Positions 6,578 through 42,624 of a stretch of 64,000 nt of DNA are shown here, piece by piece. The first letter of the stretch is position 1. Each line of letters starts with the position of its first letter. Source of the DNA: an uncultured delta proteobacterium (GTDB lineage Bacteria > Desulfobacterota > Binatia > Binatales > Binataceae); the NCBI GenBank assembly GCA_963808235.1, contig CAWEEQ010000002.1, positions 179,496-243,495 on the forward strand, written 5' to 3'. A program made the position numbers and the translations under genes. The notes beneath the pieces are model-generated. The model worked only from the letters and a program-made list of their open reading frames with translations. It had not been told where the DNA came from and searched no databases.

Positions 6578-6604
6578 TTGACAGCCACGTTTGACAGCCA
6601 CGGG
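6578..6604 (+). repeat. TTGACAGCCA x2, left arm-type sites
   Basis: TTTGACAGCCACGGG is shared exactly with 50120-50134. Confidence 0.7.
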
Positions 6605-6629
6605 TTCGCGGATTCTGTTGCTAGACTAG

Positions 6630-7629: not shown

Positions 7630-7647
7630 GACTGGAGGAGGCCAGCT

Positions 7648-10371: not shown

Positions 10372-10425
10372 TGCTACGGCTGACAAAGGGACAGGTAATC
10401 TTGCGAGCGCTTTAGGAGCGCGATC

Positions 10426-11019
10426 ATGCGAAGGAGCGTTCGTGAAATACTGGGCGACGGTCTAGTAGGCATTGTCGGCGCCGCGATCGGATTCGGAATT
10501 TCTCAAGGAGTCAACTTTTACAGTTTGTCAAAAACTCTTGAGACCACCAGAGACATCCAGATGGTTAATCTGGCGCGGCAACTCTCGGGCGACTTTGAAG
10601 AGAACAAGGACTTCGAAGACTTCCGGATGGCTATCGAAAGATGCGACCCGCTGTTCAACGGTTGGCGCTGGCCAGCCGGAAACGGCCCTACAGTCTGGCG
10701 GGGAAGGTTTAACAATGATCAGGTGAACAGATATCTGAACTTTTTCGACGATATAGGATTCTACAATAAACGTGACGATCTCAACCTTGAGATCGTTCGA
10801 CAGATGTTTGGGCCATATGTTGTCGAAGCGTATGAAGAGCCGGAGATAAAGTGCTACATAGAGGGCTTACATACTCAGGCGCATCAGTCTTCGGCCTTCT
10901 CGCATTTTGTACTATTAGCGCGTGGACTCGAAGCTGCAGAACCTGATCTGGCTGCCTTTGAGCGGAATAAGTTCGCGAAAATCTCTCACTTTGACTGCCC
11001 GCTTTCAGGGAAAAAATGA
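10426..11019 (+). CDS. Membrane-anchored hypothetical protein, DUF4760-like
   Basis: N-terminal TM; YLNFFDDIG...LEIVRQMFG pattern. Confidence 0.55.
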   Translation: MRRSVREILGDGLVGIVGAAIGFGISQGVNFYSLSKTLETTRDIQMVNLARQLSGDFEENKDFEDFRMAIERCDPLFNGWRWPAGNGPTVWRGRFNNDQVNRYLNFFDDIGFYNKRDDLNLEIVRQMFGPYVVEAYEEPEIKCYIEGLHTQAHQSSAFSHFVLLARGLEAAEPDLAAFERNKFAKISHFDCPLSGKK

Positions 11020-15672: not shown

Positions 15673-16851
15673 CTAGCCGTTGAGGATCGTGTCCATTTTG
15701 TCGGCCATATCCTGCATCATAGATGGCATGACGTGGCTGTAGGTATTGGCTGTCAGAGCGATCGTGCTGTGACCAAGGAGTTCCATGATTGCCCGGAGCT
15801 GAACGCCTTGGGCTAGCAATAGGCTTGCAGCGCTGTGGCGCAAATCATGAAACCGGGTTGATAGCGGAATCTTGGCGTCAGCTTCGGGTCCGTTGGCCTT
15901 CTCCAGAATCCGCTTGAAGTCTCTGACGGCAGAACGCGGCTCTATCGGCGTTCCGATTCCGGTCGTGAAGACGAGTCCGCGCTCGGTCCATCCGAAACTG
16001 GCGATAAGGCGTTCTTGAAGCTGGCGCGCACGATGAGCGCGTAGTGATCGAACGAGCGCATCGGGTATTCGCAGAGTTCGCCTGCTACGGTCCGTCTTCG
16101 GCTCGACAAATTGGAGCCTGCCGGGACCTGTTCCGAATCGCTTGCCGCCCACTCGCTGCAGCGATTGCCGAATCGTAATTTGCTGCCGTTCCAGGTCCAC
16201 GTCCATCCAGCGCAGCCCGAGTGCCTCGCCCTCGCGAAGTCCGAGCCCGAGCGCCACGCTGTACAGTGCTTCGAGCCGTTCGCCTTTGGCTGCATCAAGG
16301 AATTTGCGCGACTGATCGAGATCCAGGGGTTTGATCTCCGGGCGCCGAACCTTCGGGGTATCAACGAGCTTGGCGACGTTGCGGCCGACGAGGCTCCACT
16401 TCACCGCAGTCTGAAGGGCGTGCCGAAGGATTACCAGACTGAGCTGGACTGTGCGCGGCGAAAGGTCGCTCTTGAGCCTTTCGTTCACGAAGGTCTGAAC
16501 ATGCTGAGGCGACAGTTTCGAAAGCCGTTGCTTTCCCAGTGAGGGCCCTAGGTAAAGTCGAACATGCTGATGGTACTGCTGATACGTTGCCGGGCGAACG
16601 CTTGATTTCACGGAGTCCTCAAGCCAGTGGTCGAGGAATTCTTTGACCGTCTGTAGCTCGACCGACACCGGAAGGCCGCGAGACTGGTCGAAACGCGCTT
16701 TGAGCAGCTCGTCTCGTACCTCAGCGGCTGTCGCGGCGTAAAAGTGCCTTCGTTTACGCTTGCCGCCTTGCCAGCCCAGATTGAGAGAGCCGACCCAGCG
16801 CCCATCCTTGCGCTGGAAGATCGAACCCTCGCTTGTTCCGCGCTTCGCCAT
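15673..16851 (-). CDS. int: Tyrosine integrase, phage/ICE type
   Basis: GSIFQRKDGRW arm-binding domain; GLREGEALGL, PKT, FHDLRHSAASLL, LGHS, YSHV catalytic set. Confidence 0.95.
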   Translation of the reverse strand: MAKRGTSEGSIFQRKDGRWVGSLNLGWQGGKRKRRHFYAATAAEVRDELLKARFDQSRGLPVSVELQTVKEFLDHWLEDSVKSSVRPATYQQYHQHVRLYLGPSLGKQRLSKLSPQHVQTFVNERLKSDLSPRTVQLSLVILRHALQTAVKWSLVGRNVAKLVDTPKVRRPEIKPLDLDQSRKFLDAAKGERLEALYSVALGLGLREGEALGLRWMDVDLERQQITIRQSLQRVGGKRFGTGPGRLQFVEPKTDRSRRTLRIPDALVRSLRAHRARQLQERLIASFGWTERGLVFTTGIGTPIEPRSAVRDFKRILEKANGPEADAKIPLSTRFHDLRHSAASLLLAQGVQLRAIMELLGHSTIALTANTYSHVMPSMMQDMADKMDTILNG

Positions 16852-16855
16852 GAAA

Positions 16856-17809
16856 TCAGCGCTTGGTAATCCACCTTTTGACCTGCTCGACGCCGGTATC
16901 GAGACGCTTTGCAATTTCCCGAACTGAGAACTTTTTATCGCGGAGCTGGCGAGCCTCGATTTTTCGGTCCGAATACAATCTGATGCGACATGCGTTCGAG
17001 CAGGTCTTTCGATTCGTTCGGTACCCTGATCCTTCCGCTGCCACTAGCATCGGCTTTCCGCAGCTTTCGCAAAGACGAAACTTCTGATGACCAGCGATCG
17101 CGTCTGCGAGTTGAAGCCAAAGACAACCGATCAGGGTGCTTGGGACAATGAACAGACCCATTTCGTTGCTATCTGGAGCTTTCCAAAGGAGACGGGAAGA
17201 GACCAACTCAGCCAGAGACTTGTTGACCACTTCCTGTAGGTAGAACCGCGCCGGCTTCAGTACATCGCCGCGCTGAAACCTCTCGAGAAGGTGCGAATTT
17301 ATTCCAGGCGCCGCTATCGTGGCGTGGGTGCTCCACGGGGTGTTCAATTCGCTCGATGGCGGCCAGTCGTACGTTATGTGATCGCGGCGCCGCCAATGGA
17401 TGCAGCTAGCGAGTACTGACGAGTTCTCGGCCTTAATAGCTTCCCAGAGCGTGACCGCGGCCTTCATTCCGTGAAGATGTTCCTGCCAATGAGATCGTAG
17501 TTCCCCGGTTACGGCGGTCGTGCTCGCGCCTTTGCGTTCCGGTTCCGGCGCGATCCATCGAGGACCGCGTCCGAGCAATCCGTAGCTGTTCGCGAAGTGA
17601 AGGATCTCGACATCGGCATTTGGGTCAATGCTTGCGAACTTCAAAAAGAGGTCGGGATCGGGCTTGTACGGCCGCGAATTTTCGCCGAGTGCGATTAAAG
17701 CCGGTTCGTCGTGTTTCCGGACGTTGGCTCCGAACACCCGAATTGGGCCGCTTCGCCATTCGTGCCCGTCTTCCGCGACTTGCCAGATGAATTGAAAGAG
17801 TTCGTACAT
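16856..17809 (-). CDS. Hypothetical protein with C-terminal zinc finger and HTH (putative regulator)
   Basis: CESC...CSNACR followed by FSVREIAKRLDTGVEQVKRWI. Confidence 0.7.
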   Translation of the reverse strand: MYELFQFIWQVAEDGHEWRSGPIRVFGANVRKHDEPALIALGENSRPYKPDPDLFLKFASIDPNADVEILHFANSYGLLGRGPRWIAPEPERKGASTTAVTGELRSHWQEHLHGMKAAVTLWEAIKAENSSVLASCIHWRRRDHITYDWPPSSELNTPWSTHATIAAPGINSHLLERFQRGDVLKPARFYLQEVVNKSLAELVSSRLLWKAPDSNEMGLFIVPSTLIGCLWLQLADAIAGHQKFRLCESCGKPMLVAAEGSGYRTNRKTCSNACRIRLYSDRKIEARQLRDKKFSVREIAKRLDTGVEQVKRWITKR

Positions 17810-19655: not shown

Positions 19656-19742
19656 GGGTAGGGGGTCAAAATCTCTGGGAGTCGGAGAACGTTGACCATT
19701 GGCTGGCTTCACGCGTGTGGCCGCAAGTTAGGGGGTAGGGGG
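19656..19742 (+). other. Candidate cos-type packaging site
   Basis: GGGTAGGGGGTCAAAATCTCTGGG...CCGCAAGTTAGGGGGTAGGGGG upstream of ParB-MTase/terS; resembles G-rich cos regions preceding P27-type terS. Confidence 0.45.
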
Positions 19743-19752
19743 TGTCGGTGGG

Positions 19753-21078
19753 GTGGTCGATATAACAAGCAAAACTATTCGCGATCGAATTTTGGAACTG
19801 CGCCGGGTTGCCGCACGTGACCTGGTGCCCAATCCGAAAAATTGGCGGCGGCATCCAGCGCGCCAAGCAGCGGCGCTGCGCGGCCTTCTACAGGAAATCG
19901 GCTACGCTGACGCGCTTCTAGCACGCGTATTGCCCGACGGCCGTCTGATGTTGATCGACGGTCACCTCCGCGCGGAGACCACGCCCGACCGATTGGTGCC
20001 TGTGCTGGTGCTCGACGTCGATGAAAACGAATCTCACAAGCTGCTGGCAACTCTCGATCCGCTGGCAGCGATGGCAGAGACCGACAAGCTCGCCTTCAAG
20101 GACCTGGCTGGTTTCGTCCAGACCGACAGCGCGGAGCTGCGCGAGCTGCTCGACGGCACGGCTGGTATCGCGAGGGAGACTCAACAGGACGCGATTCCCG
20201 CGCTTCCGGTAACCCCAGTGGCGCGGTTGGGCCAAATCTGGCAACTCGGCAAGCACCGCCTTCTATGCGGCGATTCTACGCGCCCGGGCGAAGTCGCGCG
20301 CCTGATGGGCGAGGAACGGGCCGTCCTGTTCCAAACCGACCCTCCCTATGCCGTTGGCTACACCGGAGGGTCGCATCCGGCGACCAGAGCGAATCGCGGC
20401 AAGGCGAATCGAAACAAAGACTGGTCAGGCCAGTATCGCGAAGCGGCACCATCTCCGGATATCGAAAGCAACTCCGAACTCGGCCGCGAGTTCTATCTTC
20501 GATTCATTATGGCCGCTATCGAACGCGCGATCGCGCCAAACGCAGCCTTTTACTGCTGGCACGCGAGCGCACGCCAGGCGATGCTCGAGGCGGTCTGGAA
20601 CGAAGTCGGCGCGTTCATGCATCAGCAGATCATTTGGGTGAAGAGCCGGCCGGTACTGACTTATTCGATCTACATGTGGGCTCACGAGCCGTGCATGTTC
20701 GGCTGGATCAAGGGCCAGAAGCCCGAGGTCGAACGCAAGCAGGAAGGTGGGTATCCGTCTACGGTCTGGGAAGTTCCTAGTGCCGAGATCGAAACCAACG
20801 AGCATCCGACCTCGAAACCGAATCGGCTCTTCGCGATCCCGATGGAGCTACACACAAGTCCGAATGACCTCTGTTACGAACCGTTTAGCGGCAGCGGGTC
20901 GCAGCTGATCGCGGCAGAGCAACTCGGTCGCCGCTGCTATGCGATCGAGCTGGAACCCCGCTTCGTCGACGTTGCGATCTCGCGATGGGAGAAACTGACC
21001 GGTCAGAAAGCTGAAGTGATTGGAGAGGAGGAGGTAGACGCGGATGAAGACACCAGGACCACCGCCAACACCGACTAA
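19753..21078 (+). CDS. ParB-N domain fused to an N6/N4 DNA methyltransferase
   Basis: PNPKNWRRH, IDGHLR; LGKHRLLCGDST, TDPPY, HPTSKP, EPFSGSGS. Confidence 0.92.
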   Translation: MVDITSKTIRDRILELRRVAARDLVPNPKNWRRHPARQAAALRGLLQEIGYADALLARVLPDGRLMLIDGHLRAETTPDRLVPVLVLDVDENESHKLLATLDPLAAMAETDKLAFKDLAGFVQTDSAELRELLDGTAGIARETQQDAIPALPVTPVARLGQIWQLGKHRLLCGDSTRPGEVARLMGEERAVLFQTDPPYAVGYTGGSHPATRANRGKANRNKDWSGQYREAAPSPDIESNSELGREFYLRFIMAAIERAIAPNAAFYCWHASARQAMLEAVWNEVGAFMHQQIIWVKSRPVLTYSIYMWAHEPCMFGWIKGQKPEVERKQEGGYPSTVWEVPSAEIETNEHPTSKPNRLFAIPMELHTSPNDLCYEPFSGSGSQLIAAEQLGRRCYAIELEPRFVDVAISRWEKLTGQKAEVIGEEEVDADEDTRTTANTD

Positions 21079-21523
21079 TTTGAAGCTGCTTAGAGGGAAC
21101 CCCGGCAAACGGAAGCTGAACGCGAATGAACCCGATCCTGCACCATCGATCCCGCCTTGCCCCAGTCATCTCGATAAAGTCGGCAAGAAAGAGTGGCGCA
21201 GAATCAGCAAGGAACTATTTGCGCTGGGGATAATCTCGAAGCTGGATCGCGCCGCACTCGGCGGTTACTGCGACGCGTACGGGCGGTGGGCGGAGGCGGC
21301 ACTACAAATTCAGAAATACGGTCTGGTTTTCAAATCGCCGAGCGGCTACCCGATGCCGTCGCCATATCTTGCGATTCTTCATACGGCGCTTGACCAAATG
21401 CGCGCTTTCCTCACTGAATTCGGATTGAGTCCCGCCTCGCGCTCGCGCGTGAAGGTCGCCAATCCCAAACAACGCGACCTGTTCAGCGATTTTCTCGATC
21501 TCGATGACGAAGATGCGGGGTGA
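21044..21523 (+). CDS. terS: Terminase small subunit, P27 family
   Basis: PGPPPTPTNLKLLRGNPGKR, KKEWRRI, EFGLSPASRSRV. Confidence 0.93.
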   Translation: MKTPGPPPTPTNLKLLRGNPGKRKLNANEPDPAPSIPPCPSHLDKVGKKEWRRISKELFALGIISKLDRAALGGYCDAYGRWAEAALQIQKYGLVFKSPSGYPMPSPYLAILHTALDQMRAFLTEFGLSPASRSRVKVANPKQRDLFSDFLDLDDEDAG

Positions 21524-21713
21524 AACCGATTATTCACGCGATGAGCGCGCCTCGGGTCTATCTTTGGGCTGTTGCTCATTGTTCCCTTGTCAGAATTGCA
21601 GCTGGCCGAGAAGCGAATTCGAAGCTACTGCCACTTCGTCAGCTGAGGAATCCGTGCCGGGAGTGGTTTCTCGCCGCCATGAAAGGCAACGGGCGCAGAG
21701 GCTCTTCTAAATT

Positions 21714-23045
21714 GTGAAGCGACTATCCTATAAAGGTGAGCGAATGAAGGCGTTTCGTCCATATGTCGGCAGCTTGCACGAGCTTCTGAAACGGTCGACG
21801 CGCCTACCGGCCCAGATCAATTCCAAAGCGGATATCGAGGCCGCACTAGACGGACAGCCAGCAGCCGAATTACGCCGCTGCGTTTCCGTAAAGCGCCTTC
21901 GCGCTGCGGGCGCTTTCTTTACCGGCTCGGCCATGGCTCACCGCGCGATTGCGGCCGCCGGTCTTTCGCAGCTGAAGCGCGATGCAACCGTGTTGGATCC
22001 AGCCTGCGGCGTCGGCGACCTACTCGTGGCTCTGGTCGAGCATTTGCCCCGATCCAACGATTTCCTTTCCACTCTCTCCGATTGGGGCGGTCGGATATTG
22101 GGCCGCGACGTTCAGGCGGAGTTTGTTAAGGCAACCAAACTTCGACTTGCGCTCGCAGCAATTGGCGCGGAACCGCTTCGGCGCGCCCTTCAGCTGCCGA
22201 GAATCCGCGAGCTCTTTCCAGGAATCACCGCGGGTTCAAGTTTGACCGGCGACGACAGTTTTGGAGCGGCTTCGTACATTCTCATAAATCCTCCCTTCAC
22301 CCAGGTTCCCGCTCCCGCGGATTGCGCATGGGGTTCGGGAAAAGTGAATTCCGCCGCGTTGTTCCTGGACGCATGCGTGACTCGATCCGAGCCAGGAACT
22401 CGTATCGTCGCAATTCTTCCAGACGTTCTTCGAAGTGGCTCGCGCTACGAGAGGTGGCGAAGCCTCTTTCAACGTCGCGTTGATCTTAGCAAAGTCGAAA
22501 TCGTCGGCCGATTTGACCGCTACGCCGACGTTGATGTTTTCATAGCCGTTGGAACCATCAGAAAGAAAATAAGTGCGACCGGTAAGGCGAATTGGACTCC
22601 ATCTGAGAAAGACAACGGGAGTACTATCGGTGAACGGTTTGATGTATCTGTGGGCGCCGTAGTGTCTTATCGAGATCCACGTCGCGGACCGTGGCATCCG
22701 TTTATTCAGGCGCGCGGAATACCCGCTTGGGATGTGGTGAGCTCTATATCAGACCACCGCAGGTTTAGGGGAAGAACATTTAAGCCCCCGTTTGTCGTCG
22801 TCAGACGCACTTCTAGGCCGGGAGACAAACATAGAGCAGTGGGCACCCTCATCCGGGGACAGAGTTCAGTTGCAGTGGAAAACCATTTGTTAGTTCTCAA
22901 GCCGAACGACGGTACCTTGGCAACGTGTCGCCGACTGCTAGCTCTACTTCAGCAGAACGGGACGACTGATATGCTCGACAGGCGCATCCGCTGCCGGCAT
23001 TTGACCGTATCGTCGCTGCGCGAATTGCCTTGGAGAGACGCGTGA
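21714..23045 (+). CDS. Gamma-class N6-adenine DNA methyltransferase with C-terminal target-recognition region
   Basis: GAFFT, VLDPACGVGDLL, INPPF, AILPDV; C-terminal PFVVVRRTS...ENHL...LRELPW. Confidence 0.85.
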   Translation: MKRLSYKGERMKAFRPYVGSLHELLKRSTRLPAQINSKADIEAALDGQPAAELRRCVSVKRLRAAGAFFTGSAMAHRAIAAAGLSQLKRDATVLDPACGVGDLLVALVEHLPRSNDFLSTLSDWGGRILGRDVQAEFVKATKLRLALAAIGAEPLRRALQLPRIRELFPGITAGSSLTGDDSFGAASYILINPPFTQVPAPADCAWGSGKVNSAALFLDACVTRSEPGTRIVAILPDVLRSGSRYERWRSLFQRRVDLSKVEIVGRFDRYADVDVFIAVGTIRKKISATGKANWTPSEKDNGSTIGERFDVSVGAVVSYRDPRRGPWHPFIQARGIPAWDVVSSISDHRRFRGRTFKPPFVVVRRTSRPGDKHRAVGTLIRGQSSVAVENHLLVLKPNDGTLATCRRLLALLQQNGTTDMLDRRIRCRHLTVSSLRELPWRDA

Positions 23046-24217
23046 CGAATACCTCAGCGGCCCTCAGATTTTCGCCAGACATTTTGAGACGCTTGGGTGA
23101 AGAGCTCAACCCGAGCCTCGACCAAAGTATTCTTGAACTCGTTAAGAATTCGTTTGACGCGGACGCTAGAGACTGCGCCATTGTTTTGAAGAAGACGGAC
23201 AGCCCGGGCGGGTCTATTGAAATTTCCGACAACGGCGACGGAATGGACGCCGAAGGAATCTTGAACGGATGGTTAATTCTTGGGCATTCAAGTCGAAACC
23301 CAGAGCAACGCACCCGTCTAAACAGGGTTCCGGCGGGCAGTAAGGGTTTGGGGAGGCTGGCCGCCCTTCGGCTCGGCGGCGCCGCGACTCTCAGAAGCCG
23401 ACCCAAAGGAGATGCAAAGCGAGAATATCGTCTGCGAATCGATTGGTCGCGCTACGATGCCGCCCCCGTAGTCGAAGATGTACCGCTATCAGTTGAGGAA
23501 CTTGCCAGACCTATTGGCAGCTCGGATGGCACCGACATCACGATTGAAAATCTCCACGCGACCGTCAGCCGTGCCGAAGTCAAACGGCTCGCGCGATCGC
23601 TCATCCTGCTCGCTGATCCTTTCGACGATAATCCAGAAGGCTTCAAGCCAGTCCTGCAGGCTCCCGAATTTTCAGACTTGGAGGCTGTTGTAGAAGCTCG
23701 CTACTTTAAAGATGCGGAGCTTCATTTGATTGCTACCGTCGACAGGAATGGTCGGGCACAAGCTAAAATAGTTGATTGGAAGGGCAAGGCGCTCTTCACT
23801 GCGAAGCACCGGGACATGAGCAACCGCGGAGAAGACCTCCGCTACAAATGCCCCGAAGCGACCTTCGACCTCTGGGCCTTCATTCTCAACGCCGATACTT
23901 TTGCCACTCGGACCTCAACCATTGATGAAGTGCGCGAATGGTTGAAGTTCTTTGGCGGAGTTCACCTTTACCAGAATGGGTTACGCGTAAGCCCCTATGG
24001 GAATCCAGGAAACGACTGGCTCGACATGAACCTTAGACGGTCGCAGAGCCCTGAAGAGAGGCCTTCGACTAATAACTCTATCGGTAGAGTTTCTATTCAG
24101 GAGACTGAGGGACTCTTGGTCCAGAAGACCGATCGCTCAGGCTTTATCGAGGGTGACTCCTTCATTGAGCTCAAACGCTTCGCTACAGACGCGCTCGAAT
24201 GGATGGCACGACGTTGA
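23042..24217 (+). CDS. MORC/HSP90-type GHKL ATPase (N-terminal part of an ATPase-kinase fusion)
   Basis: ILRRLGEEL, ELVKNSFDAD, ISDNGDGM, GSKGLGRLA, GTDITI, GGVHLYQNGLRVSPYG, QKTDRSG; GTG overlaps the MTase stop. Confidence 0.88.
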   Translation: MTNTSAALRFSPDILRRLGEELNPSLDQSILELVKNSFDADARDCAIVLKKTDSPGGSIEISDNGDGMDAEGILNGWLILGHSSRNPEQRTRLNRVPAGSKGLGRLAALRLGGAATLRSRPKGDAKREYRLRIDWSRYDAAPVVEDVPLSVEELARPIGSSDGTDITIENLHATVSRAEVKRLARSLILLADPFDDNPEGFKPVLQAPEFSDLEAVVEARYFKDAELHLIATVDRNGRAQAKIVDWKGKALFTAKHRDMSNRGEDLRYKCPEATFDLWAFILNADTFATRTSTIDEVREWLKFFGGVHLYQNGLRVSPYGNPGNDWLDMNLRRSQSPEERPSTNNSIGRVSIQETEGLLVQKTDRSGFIEGDSFIELKRFATDALEWMARR

Positions 24218-25114
24218 ATGCGCGAGGCCCAGAAGAGGCGCGGCAAGGAACGGCGCGAAACCCCTCAGCGATCAACCGAGGCCAAACTCAAGATAAAGGA
24301 GGCGATCAAACGTCTTCCCGGCAAAAAGGGCCAAGCCGTCGAACAAGCATTCGACAAGTACGAGAGTTTTCGTGACAAGGAGGTTAAGACATTACGTAAA
24401 GAGGTATTGCTCTACAGGACTCTGAGCACCGCTGGAATCACGGCTGCGACCTTTGCTCACGAGTCAGCGGGCAATCCTATCAAGGCGATTGACCAGGCGG
24501 CCAAGTCTGTGCAGAGGCGAGCGCGGAAAGAGTTGGGAGAGAAATATGATCAGCTCCTTTCGGAGCCCATAGATTTGATCATCCGCTCCACGGATGCGTT
24601 GAAGGTGTTAGGAAACGTAACGTTTAGTCTACTGGACCATGAAAAGCGGCGCTCTTCTCGAGTTGAAGTCCATAAGGTAATCGAATCGGTGATAAGAACA
24701 TACAAGCCGTTCACTCAAGAACGCGACGTTAAGATTGTACCTCGACTCGCTAGTGGGAATCCGTATCTGAGAGGAAGCGAAGCGGCCATCGAATCGATTG
24801 TCACAAATTTCCTAAACAATAGTCTAGTCTGGTTCGAGAAGGTGCATGAGAAAAAGCGCGAGATTCTGATCCGTACCGAAACCACGAACAGCACTCTAAA
24901 GTTGGAATTCGCTGATAGTGGGCCTGGAATAGAAGGAATCGATGTCGAAGACGTTTGGCTCCCGGGGGAGACAACCCGACCAAACGGTACCGGATTGGGC
25001 CTCGCAATTGTTCATGACACCGTCGAGGATCTGGGAGGTAGTGTTAAAGCTTTCCCTCGCGGTGAATTGGGCGGGGCCACGTTCTTAGTTGAAATACCGA
25101 TCTTGGGGACGTGA
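24218..25114 (+). CDS. Histidine kinase (C-terminal part, same frame after TGA 24215-24217)
   Basis: H-box FAHE, N-box NFLNNS, DSGPGI, GTGLGL, GGATF. Confidence 0.88.
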   Translation: MREAQKRRGKERRETPQRSTEAKLKIKEAIKRLPGKKGQAVEQAFDKYESFRDKEVKTLRKEVLLYRTLSTAGITAATFAHESAGNPIKAIDQAAKSVQRRARKELGEKYDQLLSEPIDLIIRSTDALKVLGNVTFSLLDHEKRRSSRVEVHKVIESVIRTYKPFTQERDVKIVPRLASGNPYLRGSEAAIESIVTNFLNNSLVWFEKVHEKKREILIRTETTNSTLKLEFADSGPGIEGIDVEDVWLPGETTRPNGTGLGLAIVHDTVEDLGGSVKAFPRGELGGATFLVEIPILGT

Positions 25115-25115
25115 A

Positions 25116-25790
25116 ATGTCAAGAACAATTCTCGGCCAAGAAATTTCACGCGTGAAAATCATTGATGACGACCCAGCCGCAAGAGGCGCGATGGTATTCA
25201 CAGTGACCGACGCGGATTTTCTGGCCCTGCCCGACGATGGTCCTCTGCCGAAGCTGGAAGAGTTTGTCCAAAGTGCCAAACAGTCGGTGGATGCTGTCGT
25301 ATGCGATCACCGCCTCAAAGGCACTTACGCAAAGTTTAATGGAGCGGAGGCGGCAGCGCACCTTTACAAAGAAAAGTGCCCGGCCGTGCTGTGCACGCGC
25401 TGGAACACAGCCGACATCGATGCAATGCGCCAGTACCTTCGGTACATTCCATCTCTTCTATCAACCGACAATGTGGACCCCGAAACCATCGCCGGTGGGA
25501 TTGCTCGATGCATCCAGGAGTTCAACAATGACCCCCCTCCAAGCCGAAAGCCTTGGCGTACTCTCCTTGCGGTAGAATCGGTGGCCTCAGACCTGCTTCC
25601 GCCTTTGTTTTATGTTGCGATCCCTGGTTGGGACTCAAAGGAAATCGTACGTTTGCAGCTCGATCTCATTCCCGAGGATCAAAGATTTCGAGTTCAACCT
25701 GGATATCGTTTCTTCGCAGCTGTGAACAAGGGAGCAGAGCGCCCTGAAGAACTGTTCTTTTCAGACTTCGAGTTTCCGAAGAAGGGGTGA
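25116..25790 (+). CDS. Receiver-domain protein with an uncharacterised C-terminal beta-rich domain
   Basis: IIDDD, VVCDHRL phospho-Asp, FNG, LCT; no HTH output domain. Confidence 0.8.
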   Translation: MSRTILGQEISRVKIIDDDPAARGAMVFTVTDADFLALPDDGPLPKLEEFVQSAKQSVDAVVCDHRLKGTYAKFNGAEAAAHLYKEKCPAVLCTRWNTADIDAMRQYLRYIPSLLSTDNVDPETIAGGIARCIQEFNNDPPPSRKPWRTLLAVESVASDLLPPLFYVAIPGWDSKEIVRLQLDLIPEDQRFRVQPGYRFFAAVNKGAERPEELFFSDFEFPKKG

Positions 25791-26779
25791 TGCCAATGGG
25801 CGAGCCGACCCTCTCGATTCTAGATGTGGGCCACGGAAACTGCGCCGTTCTCGTCGACGACAAAGTCGTAGTGATTGATGCAGGCCCCGGAACAACTCTG
25901 TTGGAGTTTCTGGAGAGGGAAGGAATTAAAGAAGTCAGTGTAGTGCTTGTCTCTCACGCTGACGAAGATCACGTCAAAGGGTTGGTAGGCTTGGTCGAGT
26001 CTCAAGCCGTCACTATTAGCACCATCCACGTCAATTCCGACGCCATCAAAGAGTCGGCGACGTGGAGTCACCTAGCGTATTTGTTGGATGAGGAAAACAA
26101 GGCGGGACATATACGGTTCGAGGTCGGCCTGACGACGAATCACTCGGATCAATTCAGTACAGCGTCGATCACCGTGGAAATCCTAGCGCCCTCTCCAGGC
26201 ATCGTGATGAAGGGTGTGGGCAGTCACGATCATAAGGGCAGAAAACTGACTAGCAACACCATGAGCGCGGTGGTGCGTCTGCTACGAGAAGGTACCCCTC
26301 TCGTACTGCTTCCAGGCGATCTTGATGAGACCGGCTTAGAAAACTTAATAGAGTCCGGTCGGGACCTGCACGCTGCGATAGCTATCTTTCCCCATCATGG
26401 CGGAGGATCGGCCGGTAGCGATCTGTCCCAATTCGCTTCGACATTCTGCTCAGCAACCACTGCGCGAATCTTAATCTTTTCGATAGGCCGAGGCAGATAT
26501 GGGACGCCTCGGCCGGAAATCATCGCCGCCGCGCGCGCTCATTCGACCAACCTGCGCGTACGCTGTACTCAACTTTCCGAACACTGCGCGAGTGAATTGC
26601 CCAAGTCCGACCCGACTCATTTGACCGACAAGATTTCCAGAGGCCGGGAGCTACGCAAGTGTTGTGCTGGTACACTCGTACTGAACCTAGGAAAAAATCC
26701 TGTTCTTCTTCCGATGGCAGAAGCACATCTGCAGTTCATTTCGGACTCAGCACCGTCCGCTCTTTGCACGAAGTCTTAA
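25787..26779 (+). CDS. ComEC/Rec2-like metallo-beta-lactamase-fold hydrolase
   Basis: LDVGHGNC, IDAG, SHADEDH, LPGD, PHHGG; Cys-containing tail; no TM segment. Confidence 0.88.
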   Translation: MMPMGEPTLSILDVGHGNCAVLVDDKVVVIDAGPGTTLLEFLEREGIKEVSVVLVSHADEDHVKGLVGLVESQAVTISTIHVNSDAIKESATWSHLAYLLDEENKAGHIRFEVGLTTNHSDQFSTASITVEILAPSPGIVMKGVGSHDHKGRKLTSNTMSAVVRLLREGTPLVLLPGDLDETGLENLIESGRDLHAAIAIFPHHGGGSAGSDLSQFASTFCSATTARILIFSIGRGRYGTPRPEIIAAARAHSTNLRVRCTQLSEHCASELPKSDPTHLTDKISRGRELRKCCAGTLVLNLGKNPVLLPMAEAHLQFISDSAPSALCTKS

Positions 26780-27167
26780 GCGGCCTCTCAGTGAGGAAGC
26801 GCAAGCAGCGTCAATCCGCACCAAGATTACTGAGAAGGGCTCAAAGATCGAGGCCGGTCCCGAAGTGCTCGTTAGGCAAGCGCGACCGACGCACGCGCGC
26901 CAAGCGATGGGAGTAGCCGGACGAAGATATTGACTACGCGGCGAAGGATCTGGATCGTTCGGACGTAGTCAACCCGCGCGAAGTTGGCATAGTCAGCGAA
27001 GTCTTCGCCGTCGTCAGTGACTACTTGCGGCGGAGCGACCCCATCCCATGGCAGCTTGCCCACTTCACCGATTTCCTGATCCGTCATAGGACTTACAGTT
27101 CCGCTCTCGTTGAGGTCAGTAAAGAGGTTCCATCTCAGCGCCGGCGCGCGGAGCTGACCTTTGGCCA

Positions 27168-27285: not shown

Positions 27286-28770
27286 TCACTTTCCGGCGCT
27301 CTCGCCGTCGGCCTTCAGGTCGGCGAGGAGATTTTGGTAGACCTGCGACTGATCGAGAATTTCGCCGGCAGCCTGCTCGAGTCGCTGAATGTCTTCGTCC
27401 GGCAGTTGCAAAGTCGTTGGTATCGCCTGGAGCGCGGCGCGCTCTGCAGGCTTGCTGATCGCTCCGAATTGGACATGAATTTCGTAGTACTTGGGAACCC
27501 GCGGGCGGAATGCGTCCGTCGCGTTAAGTGCGAGGTAACATTGCTGCTGATGATCTTGTTGACAGCTATGGCCGCTCGACCCTTGGCATAGCTCACTGGC
27601 GAGATTATCGCAGTCCGACTTTCTCGTCTGGTAATCTTCCAAGGCCTTTCGCTGCTCTTCGATAAAAAGCCGCAACGACTCGATGGTATCGAATGAGTAG
27701 TTGTCAATCGGGTTGGTGGCTGACGCCTCGAGCACGGTCGTGAACAGTGGCCGTCGCGAAGACTGATCGATCGCGCCTAGGCTCCCAGACTTGGCGTCGA
27801 CGACGATCATGACCACGCGTTCCACCTGCTTCTTATCCAGCACGTGCCAAGGCGAATCGGTGCTGCTAAGCGAGACTTCGGGCCCGCGAAGTCCGATGTT
27901 ATCAGCGATTCCGCCGTCGCTCAGATGGATGTACGGCCGCGCAGCTGAGTCTTCATATGACGTCCAGATCTCGGCACGATGGAAGCGCGTCGGATTGAGC
28001 TCGAAGTCCTGCAGGGCGCCGGTGACCAATAGCGGCCTGCTGGATCCGCACTCCCGCTGCCCGTAGTTCTTCAACGTGATCGGAGTGAACGCAACCGGGA
28101 ACGCCGATGAAGCCAACACCCCGCGAGCGACCGGAATTCCCTGAAGATCGGAACAGATAAGATCGAAATCGTCCTGGCTGAAACTGAATCCGGCTCCCGT
28201 CGTGAGGTCGGTGGCGTTGAGAATCACGTATGGACGGCGGCGGGGCATGTCGGCATAGGTACGGCCGTCGAAGATGTAATCGTTGTAGTACTTCTCTGCC
28301 AAATCGCTTCGACCGTACAGCAGCATGTCAGGCCAGTTCCACGGTGCGGCGATTCTGAGCAGAACATCACGTTCGATCTGCCGCTCCAGAACATCGCGGT
28401 GGAAGTCTTGTAGGAATTTGTCCTTGCCGAAGAGCCCCAGGTAAGCCGCGGCGAAGCTCCCTCCTGAAACCGATGAAATCACATCGACTTCATCGAGCAG
28501 CGTCGTACCGCTGCGGTCGAGTTTTACGCGGCTCATGTGCTCAGCCACGCCATAGGCCAGCGCGGCTGCCCGAGTGCCGCCGCCGGACATGGTAACGATG
28601 ATGAAGTTCTTTTCGGTGTTGTTCGCTGGTGTTTCGGTCAGGTTGCGGTAACGATATCCGCGCTTGGCAGCGAGGTCGTCTCGCGAGAGGGGCGGGTTGA
28701 CCCGATATAGCCCGCAAGCAGTGACAAAAAAGACTACGAAAACCGCGGCACTGATCGCGAGTCGCCTCAT
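27286..28770 (-). CDS. Patatin-like phospholipase lipoprotein
   Basis: Lipobox VTAC, SGGGTRAA, SSVSGGS nucleophile, LNATDL, ASSAFP, SDGG. Confidence 0.9.
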   Translation of the reverse strand: MRRLAISAAVFVVFFVTACGLYRVNPPLSRDDLAAKRGYRYRNLTETPANNTEKNFIIVTMSGGGTRAAALAYGVAEHMSRVKLDRSGTTLLDEVDVISSVSGGSFAAAYLGLFGKDKFLQDFHRDVLERQIERDVLLRIAAPWNWPDMLLYGRSDLAEKYYNDYIFDGRTYADMPRRRPYVILNATDLTTGAGFSFSQDDFDLICSDLQGIPVARGVLASSAFPVAFTPITLKNYGQRECGSSRPLLVTGALQDFELNPTRFHRAEIWTSYEDSAARPYIHLSDGGIADNIGLRGPEVSLSSTDSPWHVLDKKQVERVVMIVVDAKSGSLGAIDQSSRRPLFTTVLEASATNPIDNYSFDTIESLRLFIEEQRKALEDYQTRKSDCDNLASELCQGSSGHSCQQDHQQQCYLALNATDAFRPRVPKYYEIHVQFGAISKPAERAALQAIPTTLQLPDEDIQRLEQAAGEILDQSQVYQNLLADLKADGESAGK

Positions 28771-28988
28771 TAGACTTTGGTGAAGACAATTTTCATCGGA
28801 TTGGCCGGTATCGTCCCCGTTACCCTGCACCAGTCGGTCGCTGGCCGGTAGTTGAGCGGCTGCCCGAGATTGAAATAATGAGTGCCTTCCTCGAGTTCAA
28901 ACATTTCGTTTGTGGTCGCGACCGAGTCATCGCCGTCGTCGACGAACACGTCGCGGGCGTCTGTAAACTCAACGATGACATACTCCAT
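28770..28988 (-). CDS. Small acidic beta-rich protein coupled to the patatin gene
   Basis: MEYVIVEF...RDVFVDD...LEEGTHYFNLG; TAATG overlap. Confidence 0.65.
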   Translation of the reverse strand: MEYVIVEFTDARDVFVDDGDDSVATTNEMFELEEGTHYFNLGQPLNYRPATDWCRVTGTIPANPMKIVFTKV

Positions 28989-29486
28989 AGGTCGTCCCCC
29001 GCCGAAACGCGATTCTGCCAACGGCGCGTGCCAAAGACAATCTCCGATTCAGCGCCGCGAGTTCAGCTGCTAGTAGGCGGTCGAGCCTCCGCGGTAGCGG
29101 CTAGCCTTTGCGACCGCCAACGCGGACCTACCTCGCTGGCCCTCGAAGTCCTTCCTGAATCGTATCCGCTCAACTTGACCCGCAGTCAGTCCACATCGTC
29201 TTGCTATCTCATCGTAAGAGATTCAAGCAGCGTTTGATTTCTCAGGCGGCGGCGATTGGGCTTAGTGCTCGTTCGGCGCTGTGGGCCGCCGTTGTCGAGC
29301 GTAGTCGAAGCGCCATGCGTCGACGGTCGTCGCGTGTTTCGAATCCCGATCGGCTGAGTCCCAAGCCGCGAATCAGTCTAGTTCATCGAATAGCTTCTCC
29401 GCTCGCGGCTCAAACTCGCCCTATCGACGGTTCGGTCGCGTCCACAGTGCCGCCGTAGGGTATCGATCGTAAACTGGCTCGACCCT

Positions 29487-31766
29487 TCATGCCTTGCTCT
29501 TCCAGGCTGAATTGTCCTGCAGTATTTGAAGCCCCGTTTTGGTGACGTCGGTTCCGAATCCCCACGCCGCTAGCTTCAAATAGTCCTCGGCCGATCCAAA
29601 TGTCGCATTGCTGAAATAAGAGATCCCCAGGCCGGTTCCTATGGCAACCACGATTGCTATGCCAAGGGACACTACCTCCATAGTTTCGAATCCCTGCGAA
29701 ATCGCGAATAGGGACGAAGGGCCGATTCCGCAGGCTTCGCCCGAAGCTTCTTTGAGAGCCTCATCGCGCCAGTGAATCCGTACGCTGGCCGTCATGCTTC
29801 CCGACAGAGGTGAGTATTGAACAACCCTAGGCTCTTGGGAAACCGGACGAAAAACGAGACGCTCACGGTTCTTTTTGTCTTTGAGAGTGAAGGTCCATTC
29901 ATAGCGAAGCCCATGTTGGAACAGGTACGTGGCGTCCAGTAGATCGTCGCCCGGAGACACCTTGAACGTGATTGGCTGATACGCTTCCAGTCCCTCAGTC
30001 TGGGAAGTTTTGACGCTAATGTGATTGCCATTGCTCTGCTTACCCAGCCGGTTCCATACTGCAGCATCAGCTGCCTTGAAAAGCGCTTCGTGATCTTTCG
30101 CACTCCTGTCTATCTCGACTAATTTCTTAAACTCCTCGGGAATCGAGCGGCGTTCCCAGAGAATCTTCAGGCGCGCGTATTTCGATTCGACCCCTTGGAT
30201 TCCATTCAGGTCGGATGGAGTGGTAGCGATCCCGTCCTGAACCTCCTTTTGAAGCGCCGCTATCCACTCACGATCTTTGCCTTCGGGAATCGCCTCGGGT
30301 CTCACTTGGCCAAGGAGCGGGCGGACCCATGATAAGAGTTCGGCCCAGTAGGCTGCATCTAGCGAATTTGGCAGGAGCCACGTGCGAAGCGCTGCGATGT
30401 TGGTCTTGGCGTTCAAGATAGTCTGATCGTCCAGAGCGTCGTATTGCAAGCTTTCGGTAGTCCTTCGCAAGACTGCCAAAGCTCTCACCTGAAAGAGCGA
30501 ACCATACGGAGCCGCCGTTATCTCGTCGCGCACCTGGCGCACTTGGTTAAGTATGTCGACCAGCTTGGTCACTGCTGTCAGTCGCTTATCGAGAACGTCC
30601 GGGCCCGAAAGCCACCAACTGTGGCTTAGATCGCGCACCTGCCGTAAAAGCGCACGAGCGAATATAACGGGAAAGATCGGGGGTTCGGCATTGAGCCAGC
30701 CCGCGCCCACTTCATCGGCGCGCTGCCGAAGTCCGAGGCCTTTGCGACGGAAATCAACGAGCTTGATTCCGAAAAACGACAGCAGCAAAGCGCCCAATAG
30801 CATTGAGGTCGCCCACACCCAAGAAGAGCGGACCTTCACTGTCAAGCTAAACTTCTGTGAAGCATCGTCAAAAGTCGAATTCTTTGCCCGAAATCTAAGA
30901 ACGACGCTGTATTCGCCGGCCTGAAGATTGAGCAGGCGCACTTGCACGGTCGCATGTTCGCCGGCCGCGATATCTGATTCGTCAGGCTTTTGTGCGTTGA
31001 CCGCCTTCAGCTCCTGGGCGAAGCCGTCCATATCCTTCGAACCGTTAAACAGCAGTTCCGCGTTGCGTTGAGGATCGAACTCTCCTTTCGGTGCCTTGAG
31101 AATCTGCTCGACCTCTGCGTAGATTTGCTGCAACGCCCACTGTCCGCTCTTGTCGCGAAGAGTGAGCATCAGCGAAGGAGCAGCTTCCCAGGGAAGAAGA
31201 ACTCCCGGCAGCAGTGGTTTGGTGACTTCGAGCACCGCAGCCTGTGGCACCACAACGAGTGTCGCGGGCTGGGGGGCAGTGGCACGAGTCAGCGCGACAT
31301 CCAGTGTTAGTAGAACCCGAGTCGCGGTCGAAAAGAACAGCTTGCCGCTATATTTCCCCGGGTCTGAGAGCGCAGGAACGACCAATTTAATCGGAAGTAT
31401 CGGCCTGTTTACCACTATGCCGTTTAAAGGCGGAGAATTATCGGGCCGCTTAGTGTCGCTAGCAATCCCGAATTTTAGATCTTTGAGGATGTCACCGTGC
31501 TCACCCATAAAAGGTGAAGCGGACAAGTCGACCGTAAGCGGAATGTTGGCTGGTCCTTTACGTATCAAATTGATGACCAGGCTTCCCCCCTCCTGTGGGA
31601 CCGTCAATTGGACCTGCGATCCCGTCGCTGCCAGTTCGAGAGTCACCTGATCAGGCTGAGCAATCACGGGCCCGTCCGCGGACAAAACAGAAGCGCAAAA
31701 TGCAAGCGCAATGAGCAGGAGGATTGTGGTCACGGCAGATTTCCGCAGGACGCCGTGCGAAGTCAT
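29487..31766 (-). CDS. Large hypothetical membrane protein
   Basis: Signal peptide, beta-sandwich-like exported region, one TM, helical region, C-terminal TM hairpin. Confidence 0.75.
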   Translation of the reverse strand: MTSHGVLRKSAVTTILLLIALAFCASVLSADGPVIAQPDQVTLELAATGSQVQLTVPQEGGSLVINLIRKGPANIPLTVDLSASPFMGEHGDILKDLKFGIASDTKRPDNSPPLNGIVVNRPILPIKLVVPALSDPGKYSGKLFFSTATRVLLTLDVALTRATAPQPATLVVVPQAAVLEVTKPLLPGVLLPWEAAPSLMLTLRDKSGQWALQQIYAEVEQILKAPKGEFDPQRNAELLFNGSKDMDGFAQELKAVNAQKPDESDIAAGEHATVQVRLLNLQAGEYSVVLRFRAKNSTFDDASQKFSLTVKVRSSWVWATSMLLGALLLSFFGIKLVDFRRKGLGLRQRADEVGAGWLNAEPPIFPVIFARALLRQVRDLSHSWWLSGPDVLDKRLTAVTKLVDILNQVRQVRDEITAAPYGSLFQVRALAVLRRTTESLQYDALDDQTILNAKTNIAALRTWLLPNSLDAAYWAELLSWVRPLLGQVRPEAIPEGKDREWIAALQKEVQDGIATTPSDLNGIQGVESKYARLKILWERRSIPEEFKKLVEIDRSAKDHEALFKAADAAVWNRLGKQSNGNHISVKTSQTEGLEAYQPITFKVSPGDDLLDATYLFQHGLRYEWTFTLKDKKNRERLVFRPVSQEPRVVQYSPLSGSMTASVRIHWRDEALKEASGEACGIGPSSLFAISQGFETMEVVSLGIAIVVAIGTGLGISYFSNATFGSAEDYLKLAAWGFGTDVTKTGLQILQDNSAWKSKA

Positions 31767-32011
31767 ATGGATCCGAAAGTCGAGTTGAAACACGTTCTTC
31801 CCTTGTGAACGAGTGCGCTACTTTACCCCAGCAGCGCGCGGTTTCCAGACGTACGACGAGATCAACAGCGCCGTCATCTGATTCCTGGTCCGACAGGCGT
31901 CCATCGGGTATTCGATGACTTTCCTCACCAGAACAGGGTCGTCTGAGCCAGGCCGCTAAGTCGGAAATTGCGAACGGTCGCTCGAGTTAACTGTTCGGTG
32001 CGGTTTTCGGT

Positions 32012-40445: not shown

Positions 40446-42163
40446 CTAAGCTCCCTCCGGCCAAGGTGGCCAAGGGAAATAAGGGGGAATTGGGTCGGGC
40501 AAGAAGTACCAGCGGTGTCCCTCAGGCACCTGTGGCAGCGGGAGTGGGCACATTCGCGTAGGATAGTGCGAAGGAAGACCAGGTGGCTCCTCTGGGGGTA
40601 GCAGAACACCTCCGTTAGGGTCGTAATCAGGATTCGAAGGCGGGTACCACCACTGAATCGGTTCGTGCGGTGGAACGCTCAGTCCGGATGGATCGGGGAA
40701 AATTATGGGGTTATTCAGGGCATAGCTATACAGATTTGGTCCTCCCCTAGCGAATCCGGTCGGATCCTGCGCGATGAACCTCTGGAACGTGGGGCTGTAA
40801 TATCTCGCGCGGTTGAAGTACAACCCCGTGCTGTCGTTTTCCCGGCCGGTGAACTCGTAGCTGCTGCCGTTGGCGACGCCGCTGATGGTTGTGGCCCCGA
40901 ATGGCTGGTACGTGTAGCTGGTTGCGATGCTCTGTGCCGAGCCAACGAGTCCGATCGTCGAGCCCAACGTGTCCTGCAGCAGTGTCGAAACATTGTTGCT
41001 GGAATCCGTTCGCGTGAAGTACTCATCGATGCGCAACCCGGTCACGAGACTGGCGACGACTCCGTCGCTGCTGTTCAGTTCCTGCACCGGATTGAACCCA
41101 TCGTAGAGGAACTGGGTCGTCGTTCCCGCGACCACTTTATTCATCCTCCGTCCGAACGCATCGTACACAAAGTTCGCGGTCGATCCGCCACTCATCGCGG
41201 TCAAATGATTGCGTGCGTCCCACGTGTAGGTATTAGTTCCGTCCGAGGTCAGATTGCCGTTGGTATCGTAGCTCAGCGTCGCGCCGTTGAAGCCGGTCAT
41301 CGCATTATCCGCATTGAAGGTGATGCCGGTCACTGTCGCAGGCATACCGGTTGACGCCAAGCTCCCGGTCTTTGCGGTCACCCGGCCGTTTGTATCGTAC
41401 GAGTAGTTCAGGTTGCCCAGGTTCGAGGGTGGGCTCGAACAGCTCCCGCCCGTGCCGTACGTGAGCCCGGTTACGCGCGAGTCATTGTCGTAGCCGTAGC
41501 TCGCGATTACGCCGTTGGGCAGCGTCAGGCAGGTGCGCCGGTTGGCATTGTCGTAGTTCATTCCCACGCTTTGACTTCCCTGGCTGATACCGGTGAGCCG
41601 GTTGGCGTTGTCAAAGGTATACGCCGCCTGGCTCTGCCCGGCCACCTGCATCGTGTCGCGCCGGCTCGCGTTGTCGTAAGTATAGTTGATGGTGCCTTGC
41701 AGCGTGGTTTCCGCCAGGAGATTATCAAGTCCGTCGTAACTGCGGTTGATCGTCCCGGCAATCGAGTCGGCCAGCCCGGTCAGTCGGTTGCCCAAATCCC
41801 AGGTGTAGCGGACGGTGCTCTCGTAGCCGCTGCCGTTGTACCCAAAACCCGCGAGCGTCCGCCGGTCGAGGTTATCGTACTGATAGACCGTGACCTTTTC
41901 CCTGCGGTCGGTGAATTGGGTCAAGTTACTGTCGGCATCGTATTGGTAGGACGCAGCCTGCCCCAACGGATCTGTGCGAGTAATTGCCCGATTGCGGCTA
42001 TCGTACGAATAGCTGGTCGTGTTCTGATTGGCGTCGGTAAGACTCAGGAAGTTCTCATTTGCGTCGTAGCTGAACGCAGTGATACCGCCAATAGAATCGA
42101 TAGTCTGGGTGACGCCATCCAGAGGGTCATAGCTGAATTGGGTAGTATTTCCCAGTGGATCAA
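40446..42163 (-). pseudogene. Orphan RHS module with a Pro-rich C-terminus
   Basis: Homology to the main RHS begins abruptly at DPLGNTTQFSYDP; YD repeats, FTGREND, RARYYSP, DPSGL. Confidence 0.85.
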
Positions 42164-42609: not shown

Positions 42610-42624
42610 TGTTCTACCTACTCC

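Follow-up and report, generated by a model that had tools for sequence, protein, structure and literature searches.

A probable effector- and output-swapped relative of the Ambrosia system in an integrase island of an uncultured Binataceae bacterium

Introduction

Is a DNA methyltransferase (MTase) that is followed by a two-ATPase sensor histidine kinase, a receiver protein and a metallo-beta-lactamase (MBL)-fold hydrolase a new kind of defence system or a variant of a known one, and is the copy at hand intact? The question is raised by a cassette at positions 21714-26779 of a 64,000-nt stretch of DNA from an uncultured delta proteobacterium (GenBank assembly GCA_963808235.1, contig CAWEEQ010000002.1, positions 179,496 to 243,495, forward strand), which was analysed as a whole and is called the window below. 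A first-pass annotation made from the letters had proposed a new defence system here. The part of that interpretation which holds is that the cassette is conserved and mobile and that a defence role is plausible; its being a new kind of system was not upheld. What is new is the variant, in which the effector is an MBL protein and the output domain has been exchanged. The cassette is probably an effector- and output-swapped relative of Ambrosia, that is, a kinase-gated defence cassette resembling restriction-modification (R-M) systems. Judged by homology to Ambrosia, the MBL variant likely has a defence role.

Ambrosia comprises AbrR (XRE), AbrA (N6A MTase), AbrB (sensor histidine kinase/HSP90-like ATPase), AbrC (receiver with a winged helix-turn-helix (HTH)) and AbrD (HNH) (van den Berg et al., bioRxiv 10.1101/2025.09.30.679545). 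According to this preprint it protects Pseudomonas aeruginosa against phages, and mutants with changes at conserved positions of any predicted domain, including AbrC D60A, lose defence.

Results and Discussion

Homology to an Ambrosia-type locus and conservation of the gene order

A relative of the window ATPase half was found in 38 of 401 Pseudomonadaceae genomes searched. One such locus (L113 in our numbering) encodes an N6 MTase of 448 aa, a 747-aa protein with HATPase_c_3 and HATPase_c, a 209-aa protein and an HNH protein of 213 aa. The acceptor Asp encoded there is at position 60, as in AbrC. The window MTase shares 36% identity with the L113 MTase over 403 aa (E 8e-81). The window kinase, with both of its frames taken together, shows 27% identity to the 747-aa kinase over 732 aa; the two are collinear and have the same pair of Pfam domains. 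The 209-aa protein matches the profile of the window receiver in an hhalign comparison (95.8%, E 8e-9) over 89 columns that cover the receiver part only. Since MTase, kinase and receiver all match L113, this chassis is judged homologous; on these alignments, the MTase, the two-ATPase sensor kinase and the receiver domain of the window share ancestry with their L113 counterparts.

Scanning one genome for each species gave at least 578 relatives of the fused kinase, of which the best 80 were kept. The close set consists of 29 loci (L001-L029) with 39-90% best-segment identity, which were compared by tblastn with the window proteins. All 26 close loci that have enough flank carry the receiver and MBL genes directly downstream of the kinase gene (contig ends cut L007, L022 and L023, which were left out), so the gene order that the first-pass annotation had reported does recur elsewhere. 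A window-type MTase gene is directly upstream in 19 of the 29 loci; among the ten without an MTase match, L027 has no upstream flank. By record titles, the close relatives come from Acidobacteriota, Latescibacterota, Verrucomicrobia, Phycisphaerae, Rhodothermales, Bacteroidota, Dehalococcoidia, many cyanobacteria, and alpha-, beta-, gamma- and 'delta'-proteobacteria, and the cassette family is spread over about ten phyla. In the window's own genus, a match at E <= 1e-20 is present in only 2 of 24 genomes, and in none of 16 genomes of the same class. This patchy presence indicates accessory, transferred DNA. The four genes form a conserved, translationally coupled and horizontally mobile unit.

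An apparent fused receiver-MBL gene in L024 was dropped: the two tblastn matches are in different frames and the long open reading frame (ORF) is an upstream over-extension. A window-type cassette is also found at L129 (genome G055, Pseudomonadaceae, 4602-11017), with 48% identity in the ATPase half. Its kinase gene is cut by an ISL3 transposase gene, and it is a second naturally broken copy.

Organization of the cassette

The cassette contains five plus-strand reading frames that encode four functional modules, as assigned from the ORF list and domain searches (Table 1; coordinates are in window numbering). The ATPase frame is open from 23030 (395 aa, 23030-24217), and the start used by relatives is a GTG at 23042. 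The receiver frame is open from 25089 (233 aa, 25089-25790); here relatives start at an ATG at 25116. The MTase and ATPase frames overlap by four bases (GTGA). The ATPase and kinase halves share one frame and are separated by a TGA, with an ATG directly after it. A 1-base gap lies between kinase and receiver, and the receiver and MBL genes overlap by 1-4 bases. The coordinates, domains and tight junctions (4-base overlap to 1-base gap) of the four modules thus agree with those first annotated.

Table 1. Features of the cassette and of the island around it (window coordinates)
Feature	Position	Strand	Basis
AbrA-like gamma-class N6-adenine DNA MTase, 443 aa (predicted)	21714..23045	+	motif I LDPACGVGD, motif IV NPPF
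paraMORC/GHL ATPase half of sensor kinase (GHKL + transducer domain; predicted)	23042..24217	+	Pfam HATPase_c_3 4.2e-18; in-frame TGA end
TGA stop, CGA (Arg) in relatives; splits the otherwise fused gene	24215..24217	+	comparison with relatives' DNA
Histidine-kinase half (DHp, H-box FAHESAGNP, and CA domain), 298 aa	24218..25114	+	HATPase_c 5.8e-11
Receiver with C-terminal small beta domain, 224 aa (predicted)	25116..25790	+	alignment, model, Foldseek/VIA
Soluble ComEC-type MBL hydrolase, presumed nuclease effector, 330 aa	25787..26779	+	Lactamase_B 7.4e-11; ComEC MBL 9ic4
Tyrosine integrase, left side of island	15673..16914	-	Pfam Phage_integrase 9.7e-22; PHROG 1 5.3e-74
ParB-like N6/N4 DNA MTase, first gene of 7.1-kb module	19753..21078	+	N6_N4_Mtase 1e-15; PHROG 498 1.2e-84
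terS, small terminase subunit	21044..21523	+	Terminase_4 7.2e-29; PHROG 83 3.3e-51

Methyltransferase

The MTase shows a weak match to Pfam N6_Mtase (E 0.0016, under the cut-off) and a better one to PADLOC MTase_II (4.8e-11). Motif I lies ahead of NPPF, the gamma order, and NPP[FY] is present in 20 of 21 aligned MTase sequences (the exception, L013, reads NPSF). Motif order and PADLOC match agree with the gamma-class adenine MTase of the earlier annotation. The annotation had also placed no restriction endonuclease (REase) beside it. Scans with Pfam, PADLOC and NCBIfam likewise detected no REase family that could serve as its type II R-M partner, beyond a BbrUII/HgiDII similarity of the N-terminal ATPase. 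The MTase is not assigned to MADS either: NCBIfam MAD2 scores 21.8 bits (cut-off 720) and no other mad model matched in PADLOC.

Sensor kinase and its in-frame stop codon

The model of the ATPase half (31 sequences, pLDDT 88.6) aligns with GHL ATPases over the GHKL and transducer domains. The top Foldseek hit is MORC2 (9cdh, E 1.9e-14, TMq 0.57); SMCHD1, Hsp90/TRAP1, MORC3/4 and MutL come next, with E values no more than about two orders of magnitude away. Among solved structures, PMS1/MutL is the closest by sequence (E 0.0014). To judge from the model, 'MORC-like' seems a fair label for this half, and 'a MORC' is not established. The ATP-binding residues E32, N36, D63/G65/G67 and G99-G104 are invariant in 19 full-length and 31 N-half sequences. 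The C-terminal half matches NCBIfam AtoS/ZraS-like kinases (1e-18) as well as Pfam HATPase_c, and its profile matches histidine kinases in the PDB across the DHp and CA domains (E 6e-15). H473, N589/N593, D625/G627/G629 and G649-G653 are invariant in the 19 full-length sequences.

Of the 8000 candidates scored in a search of 5.8 billion proteins, 1746 matched at E <= 0.001. Among the 120 matches listed, nearly all are 685-692 aa long and have the ATPase and kinase fused. The GHKL/MORC ATPase and histidine kinase had been described as in-frame modules; the shared frame is correct, and in relatives the two are one gene, not separate modules. At the break the relatives read EWMARRRMREAQ, while the window reads EWMARR*MREAQ. 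The DNA of L001 and L205 has CGA where the window has TGA, so a single C>T change at 24215 accounts for the loss of a conserved Arg codon. In a relative of the same genus (G403) the frame is open over 690 aa; the window's match has one TGA inside. Selenocysteine insertion or read-through at the TGA was set aside, as relatives have a plain CGA.

Contigs from four metagenome runs of one study, all short and of low depth, were compared with the window over 23600-24800, and only that of run X4 covers 24215. T>C at 24215 is the one difference between this contig (151 bases, depth 2.3) and the window, so an intact CGA allele exists in nearly identical DNA. The TGA of the window may reflect a nonsense mutation at strain level or an error in the consensus. 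It lies within a long helix (H372-390) that the N-half model predicts where the ATPase module ends. If the stop is real, a break inside this helix would probably cost the sensor its coupling to the kinase. The window copy may thus be inactive; an assembly error at the T, or continued cooperation of the two halves, would mean otherwise.

The window copy could accordingly be a dead remnant, in which the nonsense codon uncouples sensor and kinase and the cassette decays as cargo of a defunct prophage or satellite. We regard this as a serious possibility for this copy, though one we lean against. The replacement of a conserved Arg in the predicted helix fits with it, as do the lack of detected terL or structural genes in the island, the insertion sequence in the L129 copy, and the fragmentary state of ParB-MTase and terS in L001. 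On the other hand, all other residues of the five frames are intact and the invariant and nearly invariant motifs of the family are present in the window copy. The kinase half could still be translated by coupling because the ATG directly follows the TGA, and the otherwise identical X4 contig has C at 24215.

Receiver and MBL effector

Pfam Response_reg matches the receiver weakly (E 0.0033). The model (pLDDT 95.4) has a Foldseek match to 3jte (E 4.8e-6) and a VIA match to 1sd5 (Z 13.0, rmsd 2.6 Å, 118 aligned, residues 10-137 only), and the modelled structure confirms the predicted receiver fold. The matches listed in structure searches with the whole model are to receivers and span model residues 2-139. 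In the family alignment D17, D18 and D64 are invariant and T94 is nearly invariant. The phosphorelay motifs of the kinase are invariant; the receiver keeps the acidic pair, the Asp and, nearly always, the Thr, and its Lys is replaced. Residues 147-219 form five strands in the model, with a short helix between the third and the fourth (b1-b2-b3-a-b4-b5), which we take to be the order of an OB fold. Pfam found no HTH in the C-terminal 85 residues, which are beta strands plus the one short helix in the model, and a search of the ESM Atlas with residues 138-224 gave no usable match. The annotated receiver with an intact Asp was borne out; that it has no DNA-binding output is not shown, as it carries this C-terminal beta domain.

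The MBL protein carries the motif HADEDH, and its nearest solved chains are ComEC MBL domains (9ic4, E 4.7e-9). NCBIfam ComEC_Rec2 matches at 5.3e-7, far under the family cut-off. H55, D57, D59, H60, D176, H201 and H202 are invariant and H14 nearly so. A Cys/His-rich C-terminal part is also conserved (C258 invariant; C265, C291 and C325 nearly invariant). By its metal motifs and nearest similarity the protein is ComEC-type, and it is predicted to be a nuclease. Pfam detected no membrane or competence-channel domain, in keeping with the soluble MBL-fold enzyme first annotated. Weak PADLOC matches are to the MBL proteins of DRT, PDC-M48 and Lamassu (RTasMBL 1.5e-9, PDC-M48B 2.7e-7 and LmuA 2.7e-6, respectively). 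The 6A-MBL system was considered and rejected: its MBL model scores 21.5 bits on the window protein, against a cut-off of 220.

Evidence for and against a defence role

A number of observations weigh against a kinase-gated, Ambrosia-related defence cassette. The window's own copy has a premature stop. L113 was called Ambrosia-type only by its composition, its taxon and the D60 match, and no XRE (AbrR) gene is found beside L113 or in the window. The two ORFs between terS and the MTase gene (21504-21710 and 21520-21717) have no Pfam or PHROG match. The defence role of the MBL variant is a prediction from homology to a system of one preprint. The receiver does not have the conserved Lys; I, V, L, M or S stands before the invariant Pro112 instead. 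Its C-terminal domain is called OB-like from strand order in a model alone, and an OB fold is not established. None of the 74 kinase relatives found in IMG/VR with these search patterns has a window-type receiver or MBL protein. Upstream flank is available for 28 close loci, and in nine of them (eight from cyanobacteria, and L008) a Pfam scan of flanking ORFs of at least 120 aa within 6.5 kb found no DNA MTase. Several of these MTase-less cores adjoin housekeeping genes for EF-G, ribosomal proteins L1/L10/L11, NusG and Clp protease, surroundings that make a poor fit to a defence island. In the cyanobacterial loci L016, L018, L029 and L015, for example, the kinase-receiver-MBL core lies among EF-G, the rplK-rplA-rplJ/nusG region and clpP. 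Their genomes contain no homologue of the window MTase in a genome-wide search at E <= 0.001 with this single query.

The MTase-less loci bear on two other explanations. The cassette might be a selfish, R-M-like addiction module, in which the MTase shields the host from the MBL nuclease and the kinase-receiver pair times expression or activity; it would chiefly serve to keep itself on mobile elements, and phage exclusion would be a side effect. This would account for the MTase gene directly upstream in most close loci and for the patchy, mobile distribution. The likeness of the N-terminal ATPase to the N-terminus of BbrUII/HgiDII (NCBIfam 2.6e-20; PADLOC REase_II 1.9e-12) also agrees with it, and the wider kinase family is found beside C5-MTase/Vsr, Eco57I-like MTases and known REases (see also the loci reported in PMC8011034). 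But the nine loci keep kinase, receiver and MBL genes without a neighbouring DNA MTase, and since the four genomes named above hold no MTase homologue by the one query used, the nuclease appears to be tolerated without it. In addition, phage gained no protection from AbrA methylation according to the Ambrosia preprint (bioRxiv 10.1101/2025.09.30.679545). We consider an addiction module unlikely. The same three observations weaken the earlier proposal that methylation marks self.

The housekeeping surroundings of the MTase-less cyanobacterial copies would suit a non-defence function, namely a phosphorelay-controlled module for DNA processing or housekeeping (uptake, repair, turnover), in which the ComEC-like nuclease and the OB-like domain act on DNA under a MutL/MORC-like sensor. 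The nearest solved relatives of the MBL protein are, after all, ComEC competence nucleases, and the GHL module resembles MutL and PMS (E 0.0014). Several results disagree with such a function. The MBL protein gave no match to a membrane or competence domain, and three components have homologues in an Ambrosia-type locus. Presence within one genus is patchy, the window cassette sits in an integrase island, and several close loci have defence-type neighbours (DUF499, type IIG RM, SNF2, DUF4365, integrase). A non-defence role is very unlikely in our estimate, and a defence cassette related to Ambrosia is preferred.

Possible mechanism and significance

Beyond the conservation, the homology, the intact catalytic residues and the folds of three modules, which are shown, the following scheme can be drawn if the cassette acts in defence. 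The MORC/MutL-like GHL module would sense a DNA state made by infection, and ATP-driven dimerisation would turn on autophosphorylation of the H-box His. The phosphoryl group would pass to receiver Asp64. The receiver, through its small OB-like beta domain, would then gate the ComEC-type nuclease or hand substrate to it, and the nuclease would degrade DNA. The MTase would be an accessory that tunes self/non-self discrimination or makes the nuclease substrate. A receiver without an HTH but with a beta domain suggests that the signal acts most likely directly on a protein or nucleic acid, and less likely through transcription. The missing HTH, the tight translational coupling and the MTase-less copies together argue for post-translational gating and against the classical scheme in which methylation protects self. 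Taken whole, a MORC-like DNA sensor feeding a His-Asp phosphorelay by which a receiver-OB protein gates a ComEC-type nuclease, with a self-sufficient three-gene core, is a tentative proposal that may well prove wrong. Were it true, the receiver-OB protein and its nuclease would recall ComEC's own pairing of OB and MBL domains. The MTase-less cyanobacterial copies would then imply one of two things: the sensor, not methylation, tells self from non-self, or the module has been domesticated for a role in cellular DNA processing.

The variant places the MTase-kinase-receiver chassis, known as Ambrosia from a single preprint so far, in about ten phyla with another nuclease and a predicted non-transcriptional output domain. 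It makes testable, in a simpler setting, what the MORC-like ATPase senses and how a phosphorelay switches on a nuclease, and the natural MTase-less copies are a ready test of the need for methylation. The practical weight of this particular window is smaller, as its copy may be inactivated.

The island and neighbouring genes

The module at 19656-26800 (ParB-MTase, terS and cassette) shows 86.5% DNA identity to L001 4623-11757 of the same genus, and the flanks are unrelated; ParB-MTase and terS are the parts found fragmentary there. The window terS is intact and ends 190 bases upstream of the cassette. The integrase, a putative regulator and a weak primosomal-like gene lie to the left of the module. 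Integrase, ParB-MTase, terS and the weak primosomal-like match are the only phage families in the island. Pfam and PHROG searches found no terL, portal, capsid or tail genes there. No convincing direct repeats flank the island as att sites, and the window contains no tRNA gene. Rather than a complete prophage, this seems to be a prophage remnant or an island of satellite type. The cassette had been described as cargo just after terS; the adjoining terS and the integrase island agree with this, and 'prophage cargo' is only partly right because no terL, portal or capsid gene was found in the island.

A 49-base stretch of the window (4179-4227) is 100% identical, in inverted orientation, to L001 4355-4403. 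The L001 copy lies about 220 bases before the module, while in the window it is separated from the module by 15 kb and falls where a NicO-like gene begins.

Other loci in the window were noted. An AbiEii/AbiEi toxin-antitoxin pair is found at 4434-5932 on the minus strand (PADLOC AbiEii 3.4e-84, AbiEi 4.1e-64; also by Pfam). At 7648-11019 (plus strand) a 907-aa protein with TPR and CHAT (caspase-like protease) domains is followed by a DUF4760 protein; there is no PADLOC match, and the pair could be another conflict system. Right after the cassette, on the minus strand at 27286-31793, come genes for two proteins: a patatin-like phospholipase of 514 aa (Pfam 4.5e-14) and one of 768 aa that matches nothing in Pfam, PADLOC, NCBIfam or PHROG. 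An RHS/YD-repeat locus occupies 40446-49793 (minus strand), with a 1564-aa protein containing Big_5, Kelch and DUF6531 and two more RHS-repeat proteins. At 52033-59611 there are two tandem proteins of about 1100 aa with a zinc ribbon, adenylate/guanylate cyclase, AAA_16 and TPR domains and weak PycC-like matches (1e-10 to 6e-14). Beside them, on the minus strand, is a PycTM-like protein (PADLOC 3.7e-20; Pfam PycTM 5.8e-11). The arrangement resembles Pycsar, with cyclases that are unusually large.

Comparison with known systems

PADLOC names no full system at the locus, as the first-pass annotation had expected; in particular, the kinase and receiver matched the model of no PADLOC system. Detocs, a defensive two-component system, uses a His-Asp phosphorelay in phage defence with an enzymatic effector, not transcription, under control of the receiver. 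The cassette resembles it in having a predicted His-Asp phosphorelay, a likely defence role and an enzymatic effector that would be under receiver control. It differs in using a GHL ATPase as sensor and a separate MBL protein as effector, and in its usual linkage to an MTase.

BbrUII/HgiDII-type enzymes and prokaryotic paraMORCs share with the window sensor an N-terminal GHKL module and the association with a DNA MTase (Iyer et al., 2008, as cited in PMC8011034). NCBIfam NF050001 (BbrUII/HgiDII-type) matches residues 17-191, with 72.5 bits against a cut-off of 550. The C-terminal half of the window protein, however, is a histidine kinase and not a nuclease. Compared with the MBL domain of ComEC/Rec2, its best solved relative, the window MBL keeps the metal-binding motifs but is a soluble, stand-alone protein of 330 aa with the Cys/His-rich C-terminal part.

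Pairs of a kinase (HEF_HK) and a receiver (Response_reg_2), linked to R-M systems and to paraMORCs and placed beside MTases, were predicted earlier (Bellieny-Rabelo et al., 2021, PMC8011034). As described there, they share with the cassette a soluble kinase with an N-terminal HATPase_c_3 (paraMORC-like) and a C-terminal HATPase_c domain, a receiver-like gene after it and a DNA MTase gene before it, but their loci are mostly linked to C5-MTase/Vsr. Neither Pfam HEF_HK (PF19191) nor Response_reg_2 (PF19192) matches the window proteins at E <= 0.01. The main text of PMC8011034 makes no mention of MBL, lactamase or ComEC, and its Table S2 has seven 'lactamase' entries, each at least six genes from the target gene. 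Distant relatives of the window kinase (24-33% identity) adjoin C5-MTase/Vsr, Eco57I-like MTases or a PAPS-reductase-like gene. Their downstream partners differ and are mostly unannotated, with a weak HEPN-like match in one. The IMG/VR relatives are all distant, and two of these loci (L155 and L158) have the order MTase-kinase-receiver-HNH. Such varied partners indicate that the sensor kinase is a module that combines with several modification enzymes and several effectors. In two Pseudomonadaceae loci (L126 and L127), a GHKL-kinase of 788-790 aa lies between a gene with a PAPS-reductase domain and one for an unannotated protein of 651-655 aa, and a protein of about 1150 aa precedes the group. 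This arrangement points to a link with non-methyl DNA modification.

The first-pass annotation knew of no named system with this composition. As a claim to a new kind of system this does not stand: kinase/receiver pairs beside MTases had been predicted in 2021, and Ambrosia has the same logic. A literature search, which did not extend to the supplements of the Ambrosia preprint, found no description of the MBL variant. Ambrosia and the cassette share the order N6-adenine MTase, HATPase_c_3 plus histidine-kinase protein, receiver and nuclease (predicted in the window). The window holds an AbrA-type MTase and an AbrB-type kinase, the latter interrupted by the TGA; an AbrC-type winged HTH, an AbrD-type HNH and AbrR were not found. 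As to the effector, AbrD is an HNH protein whereas the window has a ComEC-type MBL protein, and the L113 HNH protein, used as a tblastn query, had no match in the window. The receiver carries the small beta (OB-like) domain instead of AbrC's winged HTH, which makes a transcriptional output unlikely, whereas a transcriptional route is proposed for the Ambrosia signal (bioRxiv 10.1101/2025.09.30.679545). Some copies of the MBL variant occur without an MTase. Finally, Ambrosia is reported, according to the same preprint, across Gammaproteobacteria only, while the MBL variant is found in about ten phyla.

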